DNA of 33,107 bases from a virus (lineage: Duplodnaviria; Caudoviricetes): positions 1-33,107 of IMG/VR virus record IMGVR_UViG_3300032260_000013. One strand, written 5' to 3'. Below are positions 8,003 through 28,989 of the stretch, piece by piece. How positions within the stretch are numbered: position 1 is the stretch's first letter; the number at the start of each line of letters is the position of its first letter. Made by a program: the position numbers and the translations under genes. Below the pieces are notes generated by a model that was given only the letters and a program-made list of their open reading frames with translations, searched no databases and was not told where the DNA came from.

Positions 8003-9871
8003 TTACGATCTACCGCCGTTGTCGGATACGGCGCCTCCGCTCAGCGCCCCGGCTAGTCCGGCCAGCGGGCCAACCGCGTTACGCTGCTGCGACTCGGCGG
8101 CTGGATCTGGCGGCGGCGCATTCACACCTACCGGCAACCCGCCTCCCTCAACGAGTGGTTGGTCCACCGTTAACCCTTGCGGGAAGAACCGTTCAATGTC
8201 CTTGATATCGAACGTCTCCAAAACCCAACCGATGAGCGCAGCGACATCCACCTGCTGACCGGCCTGCGAAAGTAGTTGCAGTTGCTGCAACACAATCTGC
8301 ATAACCTGCATGCGCTGTTGTCGATCCACAGATCGGTCTACGCGATCCGCCGAAACCGTCGCGAGGTCCAAGTCAAACTCACCGCGAATTGCGTCCGGCG
8401 TTAGAGAAGAAAAGTGCTCCGCTGTTACGCGGGCGGCGTCAACACCGAGAGGAAGAACAAGCTTGTTCGTCTTCATGTTGGCCTGGGTGTGCTGAAGAAC
8501 CTGCCTCGCCACCCGCTGGAAAAACAAGTCGATCTTCTCGACCTTATCTTCCAACTTCAGACCAAAGAACTGTGCTCTGGCATTGACCTCGGTGGCCGAC
8601 GTCCGACTCTTCAACGATCCGCCCTGCGTGAGCGCGTCGGCGCCCGTCATGGTACGAATGTCCTCCATGATGGTGCGCTGAAGAGCCTCGGATTTGAACA
8701 GCTCCGTCGGCATCGACACGGCTTGGAGCGGCGAATCACCTGGCGCGCCGTCATGAAGTAGAATCTCCAACGCAGAACCACTCGTAGCCTTGGATAACTC
8801 GGTGGCACTGATGTGATTCTTTGCTGCCGTAATTAGAACGCCCGTACGGCGATGATCCGCAAACTCCTTCGTTCTAATCCGGTTCAACTCCATCTGCTGG
8901 TCTTCGATAAACCGCACCATACCCAGCGGGTAATGCTCGTCCTGCAAATCGATGAATGGCACGGTAACGTACGGAAAGCCGTCCAGGTACGGATACGGCC
9001 AATCCTCTTCGATAACCGGTTCCGTGACACCGTCGAGAAATACCAGGCGTTTTGAAAAACGCTTGTCCCAAACTTCCCAGATTACTGCAAGCTCTTGTGA
9101 ACGCTGTTCATCCGCCGTAAGCGAAGACACAGCGTTTGGTGTGGCATGATCTGAAAGGAAGCTCAGGTGCGTTGTCAGGGAAAGCTCACCGTTCTTGATT
9201 CGCTTGATTACCGACTTTTTGTACCTCTTATCTTCGAGTACATCCTGCACCGGACGAAACAAGATTTCAGCACACCACCGTGCAGACTCCAAATCGTGCT
9301 CGGGCGCATCCGGGTCAAAGACGAAGTGAAGCGGGTTGATGCGCCGAATCCACGGCTCCTCTTCTCTGATGGCGTCGTTGTAGTTGATCCGAACACCAGG
9401 TCGAAGGGCGCCCTCTTCCAGCTCAAACCGATAGCCGGTCTTCACGATACCGTGTCCTATGATCACGGAATCTTTCACCGCGCGCCGCATCTGCCTCGTC
9501 ATGTTCTTTTCGCGCCACAGGTAGTTCAGCAAATTCCGCTGGTTGACGGCGGCCTCCACTGACTCGGGGCGGCGCGGACGGATCGTAAACTCCGGGTGAC
9601 GACGAATCAAAAACGGGAGAAAGTCCTCCACGGTAGAACCAGTTACGTTCACCGTGATCAAGTCTCGAGGAGTGTCGGAGAAAAGATCCTCCTCCATCTC
9701 CTGTCCTTCGCTCCAGTGATCACCTCGCACCAGCCGCAGCGCGCGCTTCCACGCGTCGTCACCGTTCCAGTGGCTCTGCCTCCAGGCAAGGGACTTTGCC
9801 AGCCTGTCGTGCCACATTTCGTATGCGCGATCGCCGCTGGCGCGTTCGGTTTCAAACATTTCAGCTGCCAT
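8003..9871 (-). CDS. Portal protein (P22/podovirus-like)
   Basis: 622 aa. Motifs DSVIIGHGIVKTG, RINPLHFVFDPDA, FPYVTVP, DQQMELNR and RTSATEV are portal-typical. Located between terminase and scaffold. Confidence 0.9.
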   Translation of the reverse strand: MAAEMFETERASGDRAYEMWHDRLAKSLAWRQSHWNGDDAWKRALRLVRGDHWSEGQEMEEDLFSDTPRDLITVNVTGSTVEDFLPFLIRRHPEFTIRPRRPESVEAAVNQRNLLNYLWREKNMTRQMRRAVKDSVIIGHGIVKTGYRFELEEGALRPGVRINYNDAIREEEPWIRRINPLHFVFDPDAPEHDLESARWCAEILFRPVQDVLEDKRYKKSVIKRIKNGELSLTTHLSFLSDHATPNAVSSLTADEQRSQELAVIWEVWDKRFSKRLVFLDGVTEPVIEEDWPYPYLDGFPYVTVPFIDLQDEHYPLGMVRFIEDQQMELNRIRTKEFADHRRTGVLITAAKNHISATELSKATSGSALEILLHDGAPGDSPLQAVSMPTELFKSEALQRTIMEDIRTMTGADALTQGGSLKSRTSATEVNARAQFFGLKLEDKVEKIDLFFQRVARQVLQHTQANMKTNKLVLPLGVDAARVTAEHFSSLTPDAIRGEFDLDLATVSADRVDRSVDRQQRMQVMQIVLQQLQLLSQAGQQVDVAALIGWVLETFDIKDIERFFPQGLTVDQPLVEGGGLPVGVNAPPPDPAAESQQRNAVGPLAGLAGALSGGAVSDNGGRS

Positions 9872-10661
9872 GACGTGCTCTCCGTTCCGTTCGCGTCCAC
9901 GTCAAATAGTGCGCAAACAAGTGATGACCGATTACCTGCAACCCTCGGGTGCTCAGGGCCAAGACAAGCTCGCGTAGCCGCGTGCGCAATGTATACGCCG
10001 TGCTCAGCTTGCCGCCCGTCCCCAAATACAGTAGGGGAAACGCGTGTCGATAACGCAAAAACAAAATCCCCGCCGGAACCAGGTGCGGAACAATGTCAAA
10101 CCCAGCAAAAATGCGAGTCGCGCGCCCGCCGTAGTAGACCTCCAAAAACGCGCTACCTGGCCCGGTTGTAAACCGAGGCGCAGCCCAGGTAGTTACATCA
10201 GATACGTGCTCTCCGTGGCTGCGCACCGCGAGCAACGCCGAGAGACATCCAGCCAACGCGCCGCCGAGAGAATGCCCCCCAATGAGAATCGGACCTTGCG
10301 TCCGCGAAAGAAACGGCAGAACTACGTGGTCGAGTATGTCGACCGCCGACGTCATGAATCCCTCGTGCCACTTTCCTGGAAGACCAACATGCTCAACCGG
10401 GCGAACTCGAAGATTGGTTCTCCAGTCCGCCAGCTCATTCGTACCAGGAAAAACGACGGCACGGCGACCAAGAGAAGAAACACCGAGCAGTACCTGTGTT
10501 TTGTTGTGCTCTTCGTGCTTCAGATCCCAGGTCTCCGGCCGAATTTCATCACCCTCATAGTACAGGTCGAGGTGCCGATCACCTTGATCTGGGTAGTAGG
10601 CAAGCTGGATCAGCTCAGCCATCAGTGCAATGTTATGACTTATACTGTGCATACCGATCAC
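9861..10661 (-). CDS. Lipase class 3 (alpha/beta hydrolase)
   Basis: Contains VVFPGT (oxyanion/lid), WHEGF, nucleophile elbow GHSLGG, TWAAPR, catalytic Asp in DIVPHL and a C-terminal His (GHHLFAHY). The start may instead be the ATG at 10652. Confidence 0.85.
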   Translation of the reverse strand: MIGMHSISHNIALMAELIQLAYYPDQGDRHLDLYYEGDEIRPETWDLKHEEHNKTQVLLGVSSLGRRAVVFPGTNELADWRTNLRVRPVEHVGLPGKWHEGFMTSAVDILDHVVLPFLSRTQGPILIGGHSLGGALAGCLSALLAVRSHGEHVSDVTTWAAPRFTTGPGSAFLEVYYGGRATRIFAGFDIVPHLVPAGILFLRYRHAFPLLYLGTGGKLSTAYTLRTRLRELVLALSTRGLQVIGHHLFAHYLTWTRTERRARHGS

Positions 10662-13193: not shown

Positions 13194-13367
13194 AGAAAGA
13201 TGAAGTCCCCGCTCGCCGTCCGCGGAGCCTCCTCGAGGTGGCCGGAGATGTGATTTTCCTTCCGGAGAAAGAAGAACTCGAGATCCCCGCTCGCCAAATT
13301 TTCTGGCGGGTACTGTATACCAATTTCTTCTTTTTCTTTTTCTTCTTTTCTTCTTTGCAACGAAGAA

Positions 13368-13439
13368 TAGAAAAGAAGAAAGAAGAGATAGTAGAAAAGA
13401 AGAAAGAAGAGATAGTAGAAAAGAAGAAAGAAGAAGTAG
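13368..13439. repeat. Three tandem copies of a 24-bp purine-rich unit TAGAAAAGAAGAAAGAAGAGATAG
   Basis: Copies at 13368-13391 and 13392-13415 are identical; 13416-13439 has a variant end. Preceded by a complementary polypyrimidine tract at about 13325-13356. Confidence 0.9.
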
Positions 13440-13971: not shown

Positions 13972-14218
13972 GTGCTCTAATACGATTCCACGAATGAGGA
14001 CATTCATCGTCTGCATAACTTCTTTGTTTTCAACTACTTAGATATGACTGTCCTCGTTTGATGACAAGACTGTCCTCTTCCGGAGACAATATGTGGTCTT
14101 GAATAAGAGCATTCATCTCTTCATTTCCTCTCTTCTCTTTTTTCTTTTCTTCTTTAAGTCCTTTGTTTTCATCACTTAGAAGAAAGTCAGCACAAACTTA
14201 CCCGCTCGCCTTGAATCC

Positions 14219-14234
14219 TGGCACGCCGTATGCA
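14219..14234 (+). promoter_or_regulatory. Sigma54 (RpoN)-type -24/-12 promoter candidate for the early arm
   Basis: TGGCAC-GCCGT-ATGCA versus consensus TGGCAC-N5-TTGCW, with the invariant GG and GC correctly spaced. An overlapping weak sigma70-like TTGAAT is at 14211. Confidence 0.55.
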
Positions 14235-14244
14235 ATACTATTAT

Positions 14245-14550
14245 CCCGTAAGCAAGAAACGACAACGCGACGGCTTACACGAGATCATTGAAAACTAGCC
14301 AAGCGAGCCCGGACCGACGGGGAATCAAATCCCTGTATCGTACGCGGCAACCTGAAAGCGAGACCGAAATAGCCCACAGGCTACTCGGCGACGCGGTAAG
14401 CGTGTCCAGGAAAGCACTCGAGATCGTTTGGCGACAGAATATGCGGATTGTGGAGATCGCGAAAGCGTGCGGGATGAGCAATCGTCCGCCCCACAATCCG
14501 CCTCGAATTCTGCTTAGAATCAAGCGGACGTTATCGTCCTCTTAGTTGTA
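14245..14550 (+). ncRNA. Candidate large structured non-coding RNA (unassigned)
   Basis: Nested helices: AACTAG/TTAGTT, GCCAAGCGA/TCGTTTGGC, ACGGGGA/TCCCTGT, CCGA..TAGCC/GGCTA.TCGG, CAGAAT/ATTCTG, GCGGATTGTGG/CCACAATCCGC, GGACG/CGTCC. GAAA and GCAA tetraloops; G-U pairs favour the plus strand. Confidence 0.65.
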
Positions 14551-14575
14551 CGCAGAACAAACAACGGAGAACGTC

Positions 14576-14788
14576 ATGTGCAGACCTACCACGCCAGATA
14601 ATGGCGCGCCGTCTAAGACGCTCGCACGTCGTGGACGATGGAACAGTACTTCCCGAGCAAACTCGGCGGACGCTGACCAAGACAAGCAAGCCCCCAACAC
14701 GTCCTGGCGACGTTGGCTTGTTTACCAAGTCGATCGACTGAAGAAATTCAAACACGAAATGGATGAGTACTTCATTCGCAATTCATAA
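14576..14788 (+). CDS. Possible small early protein (or structured RNA continuation)
   Basis: Phage-typical A/C-rich leader with GGAG RBS before the ATG. The translation looks poorly protein-like and the region is dense in hairpins. Confidence 0.4.
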   Translation: MCRPTTPDNGAPSKTLARRGRWNSTSRANSADADQDKQAPNTSWRRWLVYQVDRLKKFKHEMDEYFIRNS

Positions 14789-14804
14789 CCGTAAGGGAAA
14801 CGCC

Positions 14805-15023
14805 ATGCACATTTGCCGCCTCACCACGACAATCAATCCACACAACGATTCGAGAATTACGGACGTCGACATGGATCCGGATGCGGCTTTCGAGTTGCTT
14901 ACTCGCTGGATCAACCAAGCAAACGACGTGCACATCTCGCCGGTCAAGCGACCTCGTTTTGACCGTGCTTCCTATGCGCGTTCCGTCGCACACAATCACA
15001 ACACAGAAGAAACGACAAAATGA
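14805..15023 (+). CDS. Hypothetical early protein
   Basis: ATG (MHICRL) with AAGGGA RBS; 72 aa. Confidence 0.6.
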   Translation: MHICRLTTTINPHNDSRITDVDMDPDAAFELLTRWINQANDVHISPVKRPRFDRASYARSVAHNHNTEETTK

Positions 15024-15232: not shown

Positions 15233-15271
15233 ACAGACGAGAGGATAATTCCATTCCTCGAGATTGATCCC

Positions 15272-15320
15272 GTGTATTGCGTAGGTCCATCTGATTTGTT
15301 AGATGGACCAAACGGAACAC
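15272..15320 (+). repeat. Intergenic hairpin family, copy 1
   Basis: GGTCCATCTGA-TTTG-TTAGATGGACC with outer GTGT/ACAC pairing. Confidence 0.7.
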
Positions 15321-15352
15321 ACCGGAACCATACAACGTAAGGAGTTAGCGAG

Positions 15353-15589
15353 ATGTCCGACATTCACAGCGAACACGTGGAATTCCTCGTGGAGATCGCG
15401 AGGTTAGATGCACTCGTCGAGCGCGTTACGGAAGAGCGCGACGAATACAAAAAACTTGCCCGAGAAAGTCACGACACGCTCGTCCGTCTACAGTCGCGGT
15501 GCGGTGTCCTCGCGAAGGATTACCTCGACAAATACCGCCAAATCACCACCGACAACGAAATCACTCACGATGAGGTCAACCCGTCATGA
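15353..15589 (+). CDS. Hypothetical coiled-coil early protein
   Basis: AAGGAG RBS; heptad-like LDALVERVTEERDEYKKLA. Confidence 0.7.
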   Translation: MSDIHSEHVEFLVEIARLDALVERVTEERDEYKKLARESHDTLVRLQSRCGVLAKDYLDKYRQITTDNEITHDEVNPS

Positions 15590-15768
15590 CACGAAAACAC
15601 TACCGCGATTTAGCCCGAGATATTCGGCGAATCAAGATGAAGGCTGCCACACCAGAGGCGCGAGCCTCAGTCGCGGGCTGTATCAACGCCGTGGTCATGG
15701 CGCTAAAACAGGATAACAAGCTCTTTAGCGAGAGCACGTTCCGACGTGCATGTGACTGGCCAGACTAG
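15586..15768 (+). CDS. Small phage protein, MTRKHY...DNxxF...F..AC family (paralog 1)
   Basis: ATGA overlap and GAGG RBS; motif shared with the next two genes. Confidence 0.75.
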   Translation: MTRKHYRDLARDIRRIKMKAATPEARASVAGCINAVVMALKQDNKLFSESTFRRACDWPD

Positions 15769-15787: not shown

Positions 15788-16033
15788 ATGACACGCAAAA
15801 ACTACGTGAGCCTCGCGATGTCCGTTCGCGTTATCACATCGGGAGCGCGAGAACTCGCCGACAAGCAAGCCAATAGTGAAAGCCTCAGCGCGGAAGACAA
15901 GGTCGACGCAATGCGCATGCATGGAAACGTCCTGGAGATGGTTGAGGTTATCATGGACGCACTCAGACAAGACAATCCTCGATTTTCTCGTGAGATGTTT
16001 TTGACGGCTTGCGACCTACCGACCGGAGAATAG
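15788..16033 (+). CDS. Small phage protein, same family (paralog 2)
   Basis: Start MTRKNYVSLA (RBS GAGGA); ends QDNPRFSREMFLTACD. Confidence 0.75.
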   Translation: MTRKNYVSLAMSVRVITSGARELADKQANSESLSAEDKVDAMRMHGNVLEMVEVIMDALRQDNPRFSREMFLTACDLPTGE

Positions 16034-16040
16034 GAAATCA

Positions 16041-16092
16041 TTACCTTTCGTCGGTGCATCTGCTTTTGTAGATGCGCCTAGCGAAGTGTAAC
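16041..16092 (+). repeat. Intergenic hairpin family, copy 2
   Basis: CCTTTCG-TC-GGTGCATCTGC-TTTT-GTAGATGCGCC-TAGCGAAGTGTAAC. Confidence 0.75.
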
Positions 16093-16117
16093 GACAACCA
16101 ACCGATGAGGACCAATC

Positions 16118-16324: not shown

Positions 16325-16344
16325 CAACCAACAGGAGAAACGAG

Positions 16345-16701: not shown

Positions 16702-16704
16702 CTT

Positions 16705-16758
16705 GTTTCCTTTCGTTGGTTCATCTGATACACTCAGGTGAGCCGAGCGAAGTGTAAC
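16705..16758 (+). repeat. Intergenic hairpin family, copy 3
   Basis: CCTTTCG-TT-GGTTCATCTGA-TACAC-TCAGGTGAGCC-GAGCGAAGTGTAAC; flanks nearly identical to copy 2. Confidence 0.75.
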
Positions 16759-16782
16759 AACCAACCAACCGGAGAAACGACA

Positions 16783-17205
16783 ATGACCATGATCTACGCC
16801 ACAAAATGGACGCTTCACACCGAATGGATGTCGGACGAAAACACGATCGAGGTAATCTTTCCGATCCTGGACGAGTTGCTCGACGGCTATACCGCAACGC
16901 GCGCGGAGGGGGTTTGGAATGGTAACCACGAGCAATCACTGGTTATCGAAATCATTCAAGAGCTTTCCGGGCACAATTCGCGAACCATCGAAACGGCAGC
17001 GCGACGCATTTGTCGAGCGAACAACCAGGACGCGGTCATGGTTACGTCCGAACACGTGAACATGCGGCTCGTGAAACAGTCAAGCGAAATTGTCGCGCGA
17101 GAACTAGGCCATCCGAGCCGATCGGACTTTGCCGAAGAAGAAGCCGAAGACATCAAACGGGATGAGCTTACTCGCGAAGCCCTCGCCCTCCGGGCAATCA
17201 GTTAA
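16783..17205 (+). CDS. Putative S-adenosylmethionine lyase-like protein (T3 SAMase / DUF3574-like)
   Basis: The pattern DGYT...AEGVWNG..EQSLVIEI...AARRIC...NQDAVMV matches the GxW/Y...E...Q(D/E)(A/S)V signature of phage SAM lyases. Located in the early region. Confidence 0.6.
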   Translation: MTMIYATKWTLHTEWMSDENTIEVIFPILDELLDGYTATRAEGVWNGNHEQSLVIEIIQELSGHNSRTIETAARRICRANNQDAVMVTSEHVNMRLVKQSSEIVARELGHPSRSDFAEEEAEDIKRDELTREALALRAIS

Positions 17206-18239: not shown

Positions 18240-18269
18240 TTGACTTATGCCGCCCGGTTAAGGTAGACT
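18240..18269 (+). promoter_or_regulatory. Sigma70-type promoter
   Basis: TTGACT-N18-TAGACT in an intergenic gap. Confidence 0.65.
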
Positions 18270-18383
18270 AGTCCGTAGTGGAGTGCCGTATAGATACACC
18301 GAGATAAACCGCAAACGCACGCAAGGGGGAAGCCATGACAACAGATCGGGGAAAGCCCGGTCACAGTTGAGACGAAGCATAAC

Positions 18384-18417
18384 GCCAGGGGAATTAGAGC
18401 CTCCCCTGGCACTTTTT
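18384..18417 (+). terminator. Rho-independent terminator
   Basis: Perfect 9-bp stem GCCAGGGGA/TCCCCTGGC followed by ACTTTTT. Confidence 0.7.
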
Positions 18418-19702: not shown

Positions 19703-19927
19703 ATGGACCTTGAAGTTTTCGGTTGTGGATTCGTAATAGGCGTGGTATTCTACGTGCGCCTAATCGTTACGCGGTCTTCTCTACTCGACAGCACACCACA
19801 AACCGATCGTGCGAAAAGTGTAGGATACCCATGGGAGAACTCAAATGAGCATAGAGACTCGACAGGAACAAATCGAGCGCTTATATCCAGACCTATTAAG
19901 GCTCGTTGCCTCCAGGACGACGTCTGA
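19703..19927 (+). CDS. Small hypothetical protein with N-terminal hydrophobic segment
   Basis: Strong AAGGAGG RBS, but overlaps the sigma gene by about 80 bp. Confidence 0.45.
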   Translation: MDLEVFGCGFVIGVVFYVRLIVTRSSLLDSTPQTDRAKSVGYPWENSNEHRDSTGTNRALISRPIKARCLQDDV

Positions 19928-20327
19928 CATTGCCGCCGATATCGTGCACGATGTTGTTGTGCACCTACTCCAGTTGCCGAAAGAAAAGCAGACTACGGAC
20001 TCGTGGATCATGCGGCTTGCCGTAAACCGAGCGCTAAACAAGGTGCGCGATGACGGTAGGCGAGCAGTACGGGAGCGTGGATTTCTGGACGTGACTCACG
20101 GGAACAACGAACCCACCCAACTTGAATCTCTTCTTCTGGATGAGTCTCTTCTCCGTCTCAACGAAGCGTTTAAGTTACTACCGAACGACGATGCAATGCT
20201 CATCTTTGTTCACTACTTCTGGGAATTCAGCCAACGCAAGACGGCGGAATTTCGTGGTCTGAGCAAATCTACCGTGAATAGCTCGCTAGCGCGCATCCGT
20301 GCCAAACTAAGGGAGAATCTACAATGA
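19845..20327 (+). CDS. RNA polymerase sigma factor, sigma70 family ECF-type
   Basis: 160 aa. Region 2 (AADIVHDVVVHL...SWIMRLAVNRALNKVR) and region 4 HTH (LP...FSQRKTAEFRGLSKSTVNSSLARIRAKLR). Confidence 0.85.
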   Translation: MSIETRQEQIERLYPDLLRLVASRTTSDIAADIVHDVVVHLLQLPKEKQTTDSWIMRLAVNRALNKVRDDGRRAVRERGFLDVTHGNNEPTQLESLLLDESLLRLNEAFKLLPNDDAMLIFVHYFWEFSQRKTAEFRGLSKSTVNSSLARIRAKLRENLQ

Positions 20328-27000: not shown

Positions 27001-27517
27001 ACCCGGTAAGCAATTCGAGATTGATCTCTCCTCCAGCGCTGTACGTCAAGGCATTTATGTCTACCGACTGAAGGACTGTCCCGGCGCGTGGCCATCTCAG
27101 AACGACAACGAAAACGGGAAGCCGACAAGCATACGATTTACGTCGAATAACCCGTTTGACTTGTTGTTCTACCACGCGGGAAACCTGCTACTACTTGAGT
27201 TGAAGTCGTTCGCAGGAACATCCTTTCCATACAGCGCCATTCGTGACCACCAAGTGACGGGCCTTTCTAAAGCAGCACAATACCCCGGCGTGATACCCGG
27301 GGTTGTGCTTAACTTTCGGAAGTACTCCCGCACATTCTTCATTCCTATTGCTGATTTTGTTCACGAGATGGACACGGGGTCGAGAAAATCCATTAACCTC
27401 GACCGAGCATCATCCATCGGAGTCGAAATTGATCAGCAGAAGCTTTTAGTACACTACCGATACGACATTGTAAAGTTTGTCGGTGAGGTGGCGTACTTTG
27501 AAACGGAGAGTGCGTGA
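26990..27517 (+). CDS. recU: Holliday junction resolvase, RecU family
   Basis: Motifs GKQFE, YRLKD, NPFD, LELKS, SFPYSAIRDHQ and RKSI. Confidence 0.85.
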   Translation: MANKPGKQFEIDLSSSAVRQGIYVYRLKDCPGAWPSQNDNENGKPTSIRFTSNNPFDLLFYHAGNLLLLELKSFAGTSFPYSAIRDHQVTGLSKAAQYPGVIPGVVLNFRKYSRTFFIPIADFVHEMDTGSRKSINLDRASSIGVEIDQQKLLVHYRYDIVKFVGEVAYFETESA

Positions 27518-28725
27518 ATACTGAAAAGACACCGTGGAGTGTACAACGGAAAGTTGAGCTGAACGGAGACATCACTGTTGCTGCCGACGTAATCCCTGGT
27601 GACCTGTCTCAGGTAAGCGCAATTGACAAGACCGAAGACGGCGTACCGATAGTTGGATTGCGCAGCCCAGAGGATCTCGCCGCTGCGGGTGGTGTTCCGG
27701 ACGGATTTGAGCTGATTTACTACAAGCCGAATACGTGGCCAATACAAACGAGAGATCCTTTGTTTGGCGACGGTGATACCGCACGAACCATTATCGCTCG
27801 GCAAGTGAAGGGCACGTTTCGTGCGCAGCCGAGCGCCTTGGTTGCAGGCAGAGACCTACTACTCGAGTTGCGATCCCGCAGCCCGCGCAAGAAAATGTAC
27901 AAGCATCGCGTGAAGGCCAAGGAGCCGAAGAGTATGTTGGAGATTTCGATCCCCGACTTACACCTCGGTCTCAACGTGTGGCAACAGCGCGGTGGTAACG
28001 GTACATACAACTTCGATGTCGCGGAGAGGCTTTTCCTTGCGTCTATCGAGACGCTTCTCGCCCGCGCGAAGCATCACAACGTAGAACGCATTGTCTTCCC
28101 CATCGGAAACGATTTCCTTCATGTCGACAACCGACAGCAGGCCACAACGAATGGAACGCCGCAAGGTGGCGAGTCTGCCGATTGGCAACAATCGTTCCTT
28201 CGTGGACGCGATCTACTCTTCGCCGGTATTGACCGACTCAAGAAGGTTGCTCCAATACATGTCGTTGTCGTGCCCGGAAATCATGACGCCGACAGCATGT
28301 TTCACATGGGACTTGTTGTCGAAGCCTATTATAACAATGACGAAAACGTTACAGTTGACGCCGGTCCTTCGACTACGAAATTCGTAGAGTACGGATCTAA
28401 TCTCATTGGCTTTGACCACGGTAACAACATCAAACCGCTGGTCCTTGCCGGTGTTATGGCTGAGCGTCAGCCGGAAGCGTGGCAGCGTACCAAGTTCCGG
28501 GCCTGGCACCTGGGACACAACCATCGGAAAGGCGTGTACTTCTCCGAGAACGCGGTAGATATTGAATTTCTACCGAGCCTTGCTGGTGTCAACGCTTGGC
28601 ATCTCAATAATGCATACGTTTGGAGCCGCGCCGCCACGGCATTCGTCTGGGGACACGACGAAGGTCAGATCGCGCGGTACCAAGTCAACGTCGATCCAAC
28701 CAACCCCGAGGGGCTCCTCGGATAG
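27514..28725 (+). CDS. Calcineurin-like metallophosphoesterase
   Basis: Metal-binding motifs DLHLG, GNDFLH, PGNHD, HG and GHNH. Confidence 0.85.
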   Translation: MNTEKTPWSVQRKVELNGDITVAADVIPGDLSQVSAIDKTEDGVPIVGLRSPEDLAAAGGVPDGFELIYYKPNTWPIQTRDPLFGDGDTARTIIARQVKGTFRAQPSALVAGRDLLLELRSRSPRKKMYKHRVKAKEPKSMLEISIPDLHLGLNVWQQRGGNGTYNFDVAERLFLASIETLLARAKHHNVERIVFPIGNDFLHVDNRQQATTNGTPQGGESADWQQSFLRGRDLLFAGIDRLKKVAPIHVVVVPGNHDADSMFHMGLVVEAYYNNDENVTVDAGPSTTKFVEYGSNLIGFDHGNNIKPLVLAGVMAERQPEAWQRTKFRAWHLGHNHRKGVYFSENAVDIEFLPSLAGVNAWHLNNAYVWSRAATAFVWGHDEGQIARYQVNVDPTNPEGLLG

Positions 28726-28734
28726 GAGCAAATT

Positions 28735-28989
28735 GTGGGACACGTTTGTGACATCTGCAACAGTCCCGCAACGGTAGAGATCGAACATACCCCAACGATT
28801 CTACTCTGTGACACCCACGCCGAGTGGGACGACGCACGAATCGTTGGGGTTCTTTTCGACCAACCAAAATGCGTGGACTGTAACAAGCCCGCAACCGAGA
28901 TTCAATTTCGAAAGCGCGGCCGTCATCCTGTCTGTGCACAATGCGCGTGGAAGTTTGCGGTTGCGGAACTAAAAACCCAGACTAAGTAG
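28735..28989 (+). CDS. Small double zinc-finger-like protein
   Basis: GTG start with AGGAG RBS. Internal duplication CDICNSPATVEI...CDTH / CVDCNKPATEI...CAQC. Confidence 0.7.
   Translation: MGHVCDICNSPATVEIEHTPTILLCDTHAEWDDARIVGVLFDQPKCVDCNKPATEIQFRKRGRHPVCAQCAWKFAVAELKTQTK

Follow-up and report, generated by a model that had tools for sequence, protein, structure and literature searches.

A gene-poor stretch in the region where the two gene arms of an uncultured phage diverge appears to be a real structured leader, as predicted by RNA folding, of the early operon, and its predicted architecture departs in part from the one given in a preliminary description of this DNA. The explanation that we tentatively prefer is that it is an untranslated, three-domain leader, which may build up as a stable transcript about 300 nt long and gate read-through into the early genes.

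Setting of the leader in the phage genome

The phage is podo-like and may be sediment derived, and its record (here called the window, meaning the whole stretch of DNA that was analyzed) is linear, comprises 33,107 bases, and is estimated to be 42% complete. Left of about 13,450, family matches of the Pfam/PHROG type define a minus-strand arm with terminase, P22/SU10-like portal, major capsid, and adaptor protein genes, and right of 14,576 a plus-strand arm carries small orphans and genes for SAM-lyase-like and DUF7178 proteins, an ECF sigma factor (19845-20327, +), an exonuclease, a primase-helicase, and a family A polymerase. No single-subunit RNA polymerase was found among the family matches in the window. 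The match of the SAM-lyase-like gene (16783-17205, +) to its Pfam family has an E value of 1e-5, which is below the curated cut-off. The structured stretch, about 300 bases long, lies in the divergence region, at the head of the plus-strand early arm, flanked by a moderate sigma70-like promoter (14211) and by the first early gene (14576) (Table 1). Its earlier description as the first early transcript agrees with this position between a promoter-like site and the first ORF led by an SD sequence.

Low-complexity purine/pyrimidine repeats (13323-13439 and 14128-14164) flank the divergence region and adjoin the small terminase gene, with three copies of a 24-nt repeat at 13368-13439; the low-complexity repeats may serve as signals for packaging or as terminal signals. 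Between the terminase and portal genes lies a class 3 lipase gene (9861-10661, −), which is absent from the relatives tested. In the early arm, the ORFs at 15586-15768 and 15788-16033 (+) are small, adjacent, and paralogous at both ends, and an ESM Atlas search with the second early ORF returned scores of 0.80 to 0.81, which are noninformative. The sole DNA sequencing run containing the stretch, a sediment metagenome from which the phage may derive, showed no variant letters, and none of the sequencing runs listed held RNA data containing it.

Table 1. Predicted features of the leader and of the early transcript
Feature	Position	Strand	Description
Candidate sigma70-type early promoter	14211-14239	+	TTGAAT, 17 nt, TG-extended AATACT; 8/12 consensus plus TG
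5' hairpin	14248-14278	+	6-bp stem, A-rich loop; pair probability 0.88-0.96; overlooked in the preliminary description
Domain 1	14298-14432	+	9-bp closing helix, two nested three-way junctions; z −3.0
Domain 2	14435-14512	+	Perfect 11-bp helix 14443-14453/14491-14501, three-way junction, GAAA- and GCAA-capped arms; z −4.0
Switch strand	14507-14515	+	Three mutually exclusive predicted partners: 14435-14440, 14522-14528, 14552-14557
Domain 3	14508-14557	+	Long irregular hairpin; z −5.2
First early ORF	14566-14788	+	GGAG ribosome-binding site, ATG 14576, 70 aa; orphan
Spacer hairpin 1	15268-15330	+	RNase III-like
Spacer hairpin 2	16037-16099	+	RNase III-like
Spacer hairpin 3	16702-16765	+	RNase III-like; upstream of SAM-lyase-like gene
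Strong intrinsic-terminator-like hairpin	18384-18417	+	T run; −19.0 kcal/mol

The candidate promoter lies below the cut of 9/12 used in the promoter scan and was therefore not listed by it. The first predicted helix begins 9 nt past the −10 box, a distance that would fit a start site at about 14246-14248, and the last helix ends 8 nt upstream of the SD sequence of the first early ORF, whose SD-AUG region is on average 0.58 unpaired. This ORF was called as a gene in one assembly; its codon score is neutral (0.001), and no homologs were found. It contains four hairpins in succession (14592-14723, +; z −2.4), and because they lie in an orphan, codon-neutral frame, the structured RNA may extend to about 14725. 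Terminator-like sites show no excess in the window (19, against 20.8 in shuffles). One of them, formed by the tip of domain 3 (14526-14539) and a U-rich tail (14540-14548), is weak, with a 5-bp hairpin and a broken U run, and is a candidate 3' end or processing site. The strong hairpin at 18384-18417 is likely the end of the early unit. Within 18240-18417 (+), a second promoter-like site (9/12) precedes it by about 115 nt, with an SD sequence and a short ORF between them; this segment may be a small unit of its own or may mark where the early operon ends.

Predicted fold of the leader

Folding of the plus strand from 14245 to 14560 gave −116.7 kcal/mol (z −5.12), an energy as low as which was seen in 0 of 100 shuffles, and the stretch thus folds better than chance; the minus strand reached a z of −2.38. 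Each of the three domains, with borders picked after the fold was seen, also gave 0 of 150 shuffles as low. The model that best describes the predicted ensemble would be a 5' hairpin (14248-14278) followed by three local domains (14298-14432, 14435/14443-14501/14512, and 14508-14557).

All the strands named in the preliminary description lie where it placed them and are complementary, and many of its local helices are retained. The helix GCCAAGCGA/TCGTTTGGC that closes domain 1 (14298/14432) has an ensemble pair probability of 0.98, the hairpins at 14317-14336 and 14364-14388 reach 0.95 and 0.96, the perfect 11-bp helix of domain 2 reaches 1.00, and the GAAA- and GCAA-capped arms reach 0.86 and 0.89, respectively. 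Within domain 1, an arm at 14307-14348 contains the first of these hairpins, and the second three-way junction (14351-14410) contains hairpins at 14364-14388 and 14390-14406. The GGAC/GTCC helix proposed for this domain has a probability of 0.00, and CCTG/CAGG (14351/14410, 0.70) and GACGCG/CGTGTC (0.96) form instead; the hairpin register 14391-14403 likewise falls to 0.02. The junction strands are A rich, and CGAG (14359) could pair with CTCG (14417) as a pseudoknot, a pairing that has a probability of 0.12 as a nested alternative.

The 3' half of the earlier architecture depends in part on the length of the RNA. Two hairpins had been placed between 14512 and 14539, and that at 14526-14539 is upheld (0.99), whereas that at 14512-14525 is not (0.14). 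The base helix of domain 2, CAGAAT/ATTCTG (14435-14440/14507-14512), is conditional on the transcript end: it holds at 0.87-0.93 if the RNA ends by about 14552 and is displaced beyond that point by TTCTGC/GCAGAA (14508/14557, 0.94). The outer helix (14293/14547) that was to close a single ornate RNA of about 255 nt drops from 0.37 in the original cut to 0.00 when ten more bases are included, and the predicted ensemble does not support such a closed RNA. The outer closing helix and the next helix both use G14298, and the fold as first drawn costs 4.2 kcal/mol (−95.1 constrained versus −99.3).

In equilibrium folding at increasing transcript lengths, the strand 14507-14515 changes its partner. 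It closes domain 2 at lengths to 14525 and again at 14542-14552; at lengths of 14530-14536 it pairs with 14522-14528, hiding the 5' strand of the terminator-like hairpin; and it becomes the base of domain 3 once the transcript reaches 14557. These exclusive pairings would amount to attenuator logic, but helices of 6 to 7 bp arise by chance in any 300 nt. An antiterminator helix between 14483-14489 and 14524-14530 was also considered and was rejected because it is 16 to 21 kcal/mol worse.

Spacer hairpins in the same early transcript

Three hairpins farther along the early transcript are paralogous, and each precedes an A/C-rich spacer, an SD sequence, and a start codon. Both sides have changed in 5 of their 21 pairs, and 96.8% of cells are paired, a level reached by 5 of 500 shuffles and set against 32 to 52% in slid controls; the comparison involves three sequences only, and the structure was derived from the same three. 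RNase III-type processing of the early message likely takes place at them, and their covariation shows that the early transcript uses RNA structure. A model of these hairpins (R2, consisting of an 11-bp upper stem, a 2-nt bulge, and a lower stem, with sequence common to the copies) recovers its three source copies and misses 14508-14557, and domain 3 has only its position, ahead of an A/C-rich spacer and an SD sequence, in common with them. None of the 17 relative loci searched with R2 gave a match, nor did any of 30 motif loci, which leaves the hairpins without a counterpart in the distant relatives searched.

A leader that may be stable and gate read-through

In the explanation that we prefer, transcription by host sigma70 would start at about 14247. 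Shielding of the RNA from nucleases would be due to the 5' hairpin together with domains 1 and 2. Part of the polymerases would stop, or the transcript would be cut, at the hairpin and U-rich tail (14526-14548), and the rest would read through. Closure of domain 2 by the strand 14507-14515 is predicted to leave the hairpin 14526-14539 free and so to cause a stop, and pairing of the same strand with 14522-14528, at RNA lengths of 14530-14536, is predicted to hide the 5' strand of that hairpin and so to permit read-through. The read-through RNA would then rearrange to form the long hairpin at 14508-14557, immediately ahead of the A/C-rich spacer and SD sequence, and farther downstream the message would be cut at the three RNase III-like hairpins. 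In its action, such a leader would resemble the Pleft RNA that cluster A mycobacteriophages make, while lying outside that family.

Several lines of evidence argue for this explanation: the difference in folding between the strands (z −5.1 on the plus strand and −2.4 on the minus strand), with none of 150 shuffles matching any domain; the close fit of the fold between the −10 box (9 nt) and the SD sequence (8 nt); an overlapping 85-aa ORF that has no SD sequence, was never called, and has no homolog; the exclusive pairings along the transcript length; the RNA-level structure of the spacer hairpins in the operon; and the Pleft precedent (described in the available part of PMC5712189), together with early genes related to those of actinophages. 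Other results count against it. No homolog was found, and hence no covariation; coding windows that fold better, and strong windows that are common in five relatives, weaken the argument from energy; the promoter matches at 8 of 12 positions, and the weak terminator belongs to a class present at the chance rate; the alternative helices that would make up the switch are of a length expected by chance; and 14508-14557 falls outside the spacer-hairpin model, with no sequence or motif linking the stretch to cluster A.

It is also possible, if somewhat doubtful, that the stretch is a plain structured 5' leader whose hairpins stabilize the early message and keep the first SD sequence open, with neither a separate RNA nor a switch. 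The local and independent character of all domains, the improbable outer closing helix in the full transcript, and the partly unpaired SD-AUG region would agree with this. So would T7, whose single early message is cleaved at five positions by RNase III (according to the available part of PMC4858673), given the three similar-looking hairpins here. Against it, end protection would hardly seem to require 330 nt, nested three-way junctions (two of them), and arms with GNRA caps. The two phages are alike in having a host-transcribed early message (expression here being predicted) and long intergenic hairpins before ribosome-binding sites; unlike T7, this phage has a multi-branched leader that does not fit the spacer-hairpin model, and its window contains an ECF sigma factor gene and lacks a single-subunit RNA polymerase. 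A SAM-lyase-like anti-restriction gene, as in this phage, is reportedly present in T3.

Searches for relatives and the possibility of a new RNA class

We consider it unlikely that the stretch is the first example of a class of ornate phage RNAs not yet described, one that would be made first in infection and freed from the early transcript, in which a core of T-loop and pseudoknot would give domain 1 a tertiary fold and the 3' end would contain a switch, and that would act in trans as a decoy for host defense or RNA-binding proteins or as a catalyst against host defense. Nested junctions, A-rich junction strands, a possible pseudoknot, and two GNRA loops would be in keeping with such a class, as would the word CUGAAAG at 14352, presumably of the T-loop type, of which the plus strand of the window holds 7 copies. 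The earliest position in the transcript would suit an anti-defense role, and a SAM-lyase-like gene lies in the same operon. The stretch shares its multi-branched form, its GNRA loops, and its possible pseudoknot with ROOL, GOLLD, raiA, OLE, and HEARO, which are large ornate RNAs of phages and bacteria; it differs from them in having no Rfam match (0 at gathering score in the window and 0 at E values up to 10 in 14240-14600). The Rfam families covered included the SAM and TPP riboswitches, small ribozymes, introns, RNase P, SRP, 6S, tmRNA, ROOL, GOLLD, and raiA. The absence of a match to known families is as the preliminary description had supposed, also for tRNA and tmRNA (0 genes found by ARAGORN), and a novel class would predict it, but no ribozyme core was matched in Rfam either, and no second member appeared in any of the searches described below. 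No positive evidence emerged for the put-like, decoy, or ribozyme roles suggested earlier. Apparent similarities to words of SAM-I, TPP, RNase P, hammerhead, and group I RNAs were dropped because Rfam did not support them. If a new class did exist, it and the tRNA-like Pleft element would make the slot between promoter and first gene a recurring home of unrelated anti-host RNAs.

By blastn, the stretch had no match among phages and one 42-base match among plasmids, at an E value of 0.6. Viral contigs were scanned with terminase and capsid for related loci. The closest phages have capsid identities of 77, 76, 70, and 67% and terminase identities of 75, 73, 70, and 65%; the relatives at 73 to 77% (P0002/P0123, P0003/P0122, and P0124) are known as proteins only, and the closest locus fetched (L002, 65 to 70% protein identity) breaks off upstream of the small terminase gene, by about 350 bases, and so does not reach the stretch. 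A metagenome scan covering 32 of 64 parts gave a best identity of 42% among the matches listed, and a genome scan with the capsid alignment gave no match. An insensitive one-sequence model of domain 1 (R1) found nothing in 50 related viral records out of about 160 viral loci (a first look had given a candidate in 1), a best E value of 0.15 with filters off in 97 kb of five relatives, and nothing in 49 motif loci, 3 named phage regions, and 11 genome loci; given this low sensitivity, the blanks are no proof of absence. The best E value of an nhmmer search over 305 loci was 0.88 among the matches listed. Two scans of viral contigs for the junction motif returned 63 and 49 stretches, none with the fold, and a genome motif scan returned 11 hits and no second member. 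Distant syntenic relatives (capsid identity 42 to 50%; G004 and G006) have many near-consensus promoters in the early region, and no match to the stretch was found in them.

In the literature, we found no description of the element in the papers covered, which were those open without subscription, and it is absent from the available parts of PMC9378689, PMC9163698, PMC10690425, and 10.64898/2026.09.22.753630. Among the viral structured RNA candidates of PMC10690425, one 11-base word occurred 0 times in 3 of the 6 supplement files, alignments not included. The earlier proposal of a new system is thus not borne out: no homolog was found, and a positional precedent is already in print (PMC5712189).

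Folding energy and palindromes

Chance folding, or palindromes that function at the DNA level (REP-like elements, origin or packaging signals) without any RNA role, is in our judgment a distinctly unlikely explanation. Among 208 sense-strand windows of 316 nt, the stretch ranks third (z −4.3, with 7 shuffles per window and a pooled deviation), behind two coding windows at 28623 and 8399. The coding windows 28623-28938 (+), 8399-8714 (−), and 27043-27516 (+) have z values of −4.6, −4.5, and −4.0 and so fold about as strongly as the stretch. When both strands were scanned at 200 nt up to 21,800, the best window of the stretch was sixth of 438. In the same region of five distant relatives, z values of −4 to −7 are often reached by 160-nt windows, and of the 10 copies of the conserved Pleft element from cluster A, 9 fold at z above −1.4; folding energy is thus neither sufficient nor necessary. 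In favor of chance or DNA palindromes are the rank of third, with borders chosen on the fold, the position of the region next to low-complexity repeats by the small terminase gene, and a heptamer palindrome seen in 8 of 11 genome hits, to one and a half units of which the 11-bp helix corresponds. RNA is favored, in contrast, by the strand asymmetry and the G-U pairs; three adjacent domains are each significant; and outside the searched arms the flanks are no more similar to the heptamer loci than random pieces of the window are (1 of 22 comparisons below 0.05). A REP-like origin of domain 2 was rejected on this last result, flank similarity not being above chance. The long palindromes of 7-base units (L414-L417 and L419-L422) occur in genomes of Blastocatellia, Chloroflexia, Oscillochloris, and Gemmatimonadales; they form a family of REP-like repeats, and their sharing of the 11-bp helix with domain 2 is probably due to chance.

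Put-like and coding alternatives

That the stretch is a put-like cis antiterminator or antipause element binding host polymerase is very unlikely. A put RNA has a size of about 70 nt. The stretch and HK022 put are both structured nascent RNAs behind an early phage promoter (predicted in the case of the stretch), and put acts from nascent RNA on early genes, which would suit a position right behind the promoter (PMC9378689, available part). HK022 put consists, however, of two adjacent stems that bind the beta' zinc-binding domain (PMC9378689), whereas the stretch is far larger and has three larger domains; no similarity was found, and neither the predicted fold nor Rfam revealed two adjacent beta'-binding stems. 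The single strong terminator downstream lies 3.8 kb on, and the energy cost of the rejected antiterminator helix (14483/14530) also argues against antitermination.

It is highly improbable that the stretch encodes the overlapping 85-aa ORF (14288-14545), with an incidental fold: the frame is open, and its codon score (−0.074, with an off-frame mean of −0.17 and a gene mean of 0.17) equals that of a plausible early ORF at 15020 (−0.072), so that coding is possible by score, but it starts with TTG, has no SD sequence, was called in no assembly, matches no Pfam or PHROG family, and gave, against 1.84 billion proteins, 5 hits that are sums of weak stretches, the best of 8.4 bits, and that lie in long repeat proteins.

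Comparison with the Pleft RNA of cluster A mycobacteriophages

From their early promoter Pleft, cluster A mycobacteriophages make an abundant, stable noncoding RNA that is about 500 nt long. Some 90% of transcripts end before the first gene, and the RNA is processed into smaller RNAs, is toxic, is partly essential, and includes a part that could not be deleted (PMC5712189, available part). Like the stretch, the Pleft RNA of L5, D29, and StarStuff is noncoding and is placed after an early promoter for host polymerase and before the first of the small early genes (PMC5712189); the promoter here is a moderate match only. Both are a few hundred nucleotides long and have a candidate stop or cut before the first gene. 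Two early genes of the phage have actinophage relatives, and one of these sits in the operon behind Pleft: the early ORF at 16342 has relatives in Gordonia and Mycobacterium phages (42 records), located 1.5 to 2 kb behind the start of the right-end operon.

The likeness is one of position. A profile of 10 Pleft elements gave 4 window matches (E 0.77 to 6.5), none of them in 14245-14800, and also missed Gordonia phage Anon, so that its reach is limited; a structure model of the 5' part (R3, 9 sequences) gave no match in the stretch and also missed the expected place in L5. The conserved Pleft element of about 230 nt ends in a 3' tRNA-like acceptor stem and T-arm, which the stretch lacks, and the T-arm word is absent from 14245-14800. 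Unlike cluster A phages, which are temperate siphoviruses, this phage is podo-like, and no stoperator-like repeats were seen in the stretch. The same position without any sequence or T-arm link suggests that the stretch may act as the Pleft RNA does but does not belong to its family.

Phage early regions have been mined for small anti-defense proteins, and RNAs that are made even earlier have hardly been studied. The Pleft RNA, the one close precedent, is abundant, toxic, and partly essential, without a known mechanism. A second, unrelated fold in a Pleft-like slot would raise a question that is testable in vitro with a 310-nt transcript, and the value of the stretch is that of a well-bounded candidate, predicted from a single genome.

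The Pleft element itself was aligned from 10 named phages (L401:822-1055, L404-L411, and L403:833-1055) and shows visible compensatory changes, CUGAG words in the junctions, and a tRNA-like end right before the first gene. It had no Rfam match at an E value of 0.05 in the 4 loci tested. The tRNA-like end, seen in the alignment made here, goes unmentioned in the available part of PMC5712189. In L5, the aligned Pleft stretch overlaps the nondeletable part, and the T-arm, at about 51,140, coincides with the published position of the abundant RNA's 3' end (PMC5712189).
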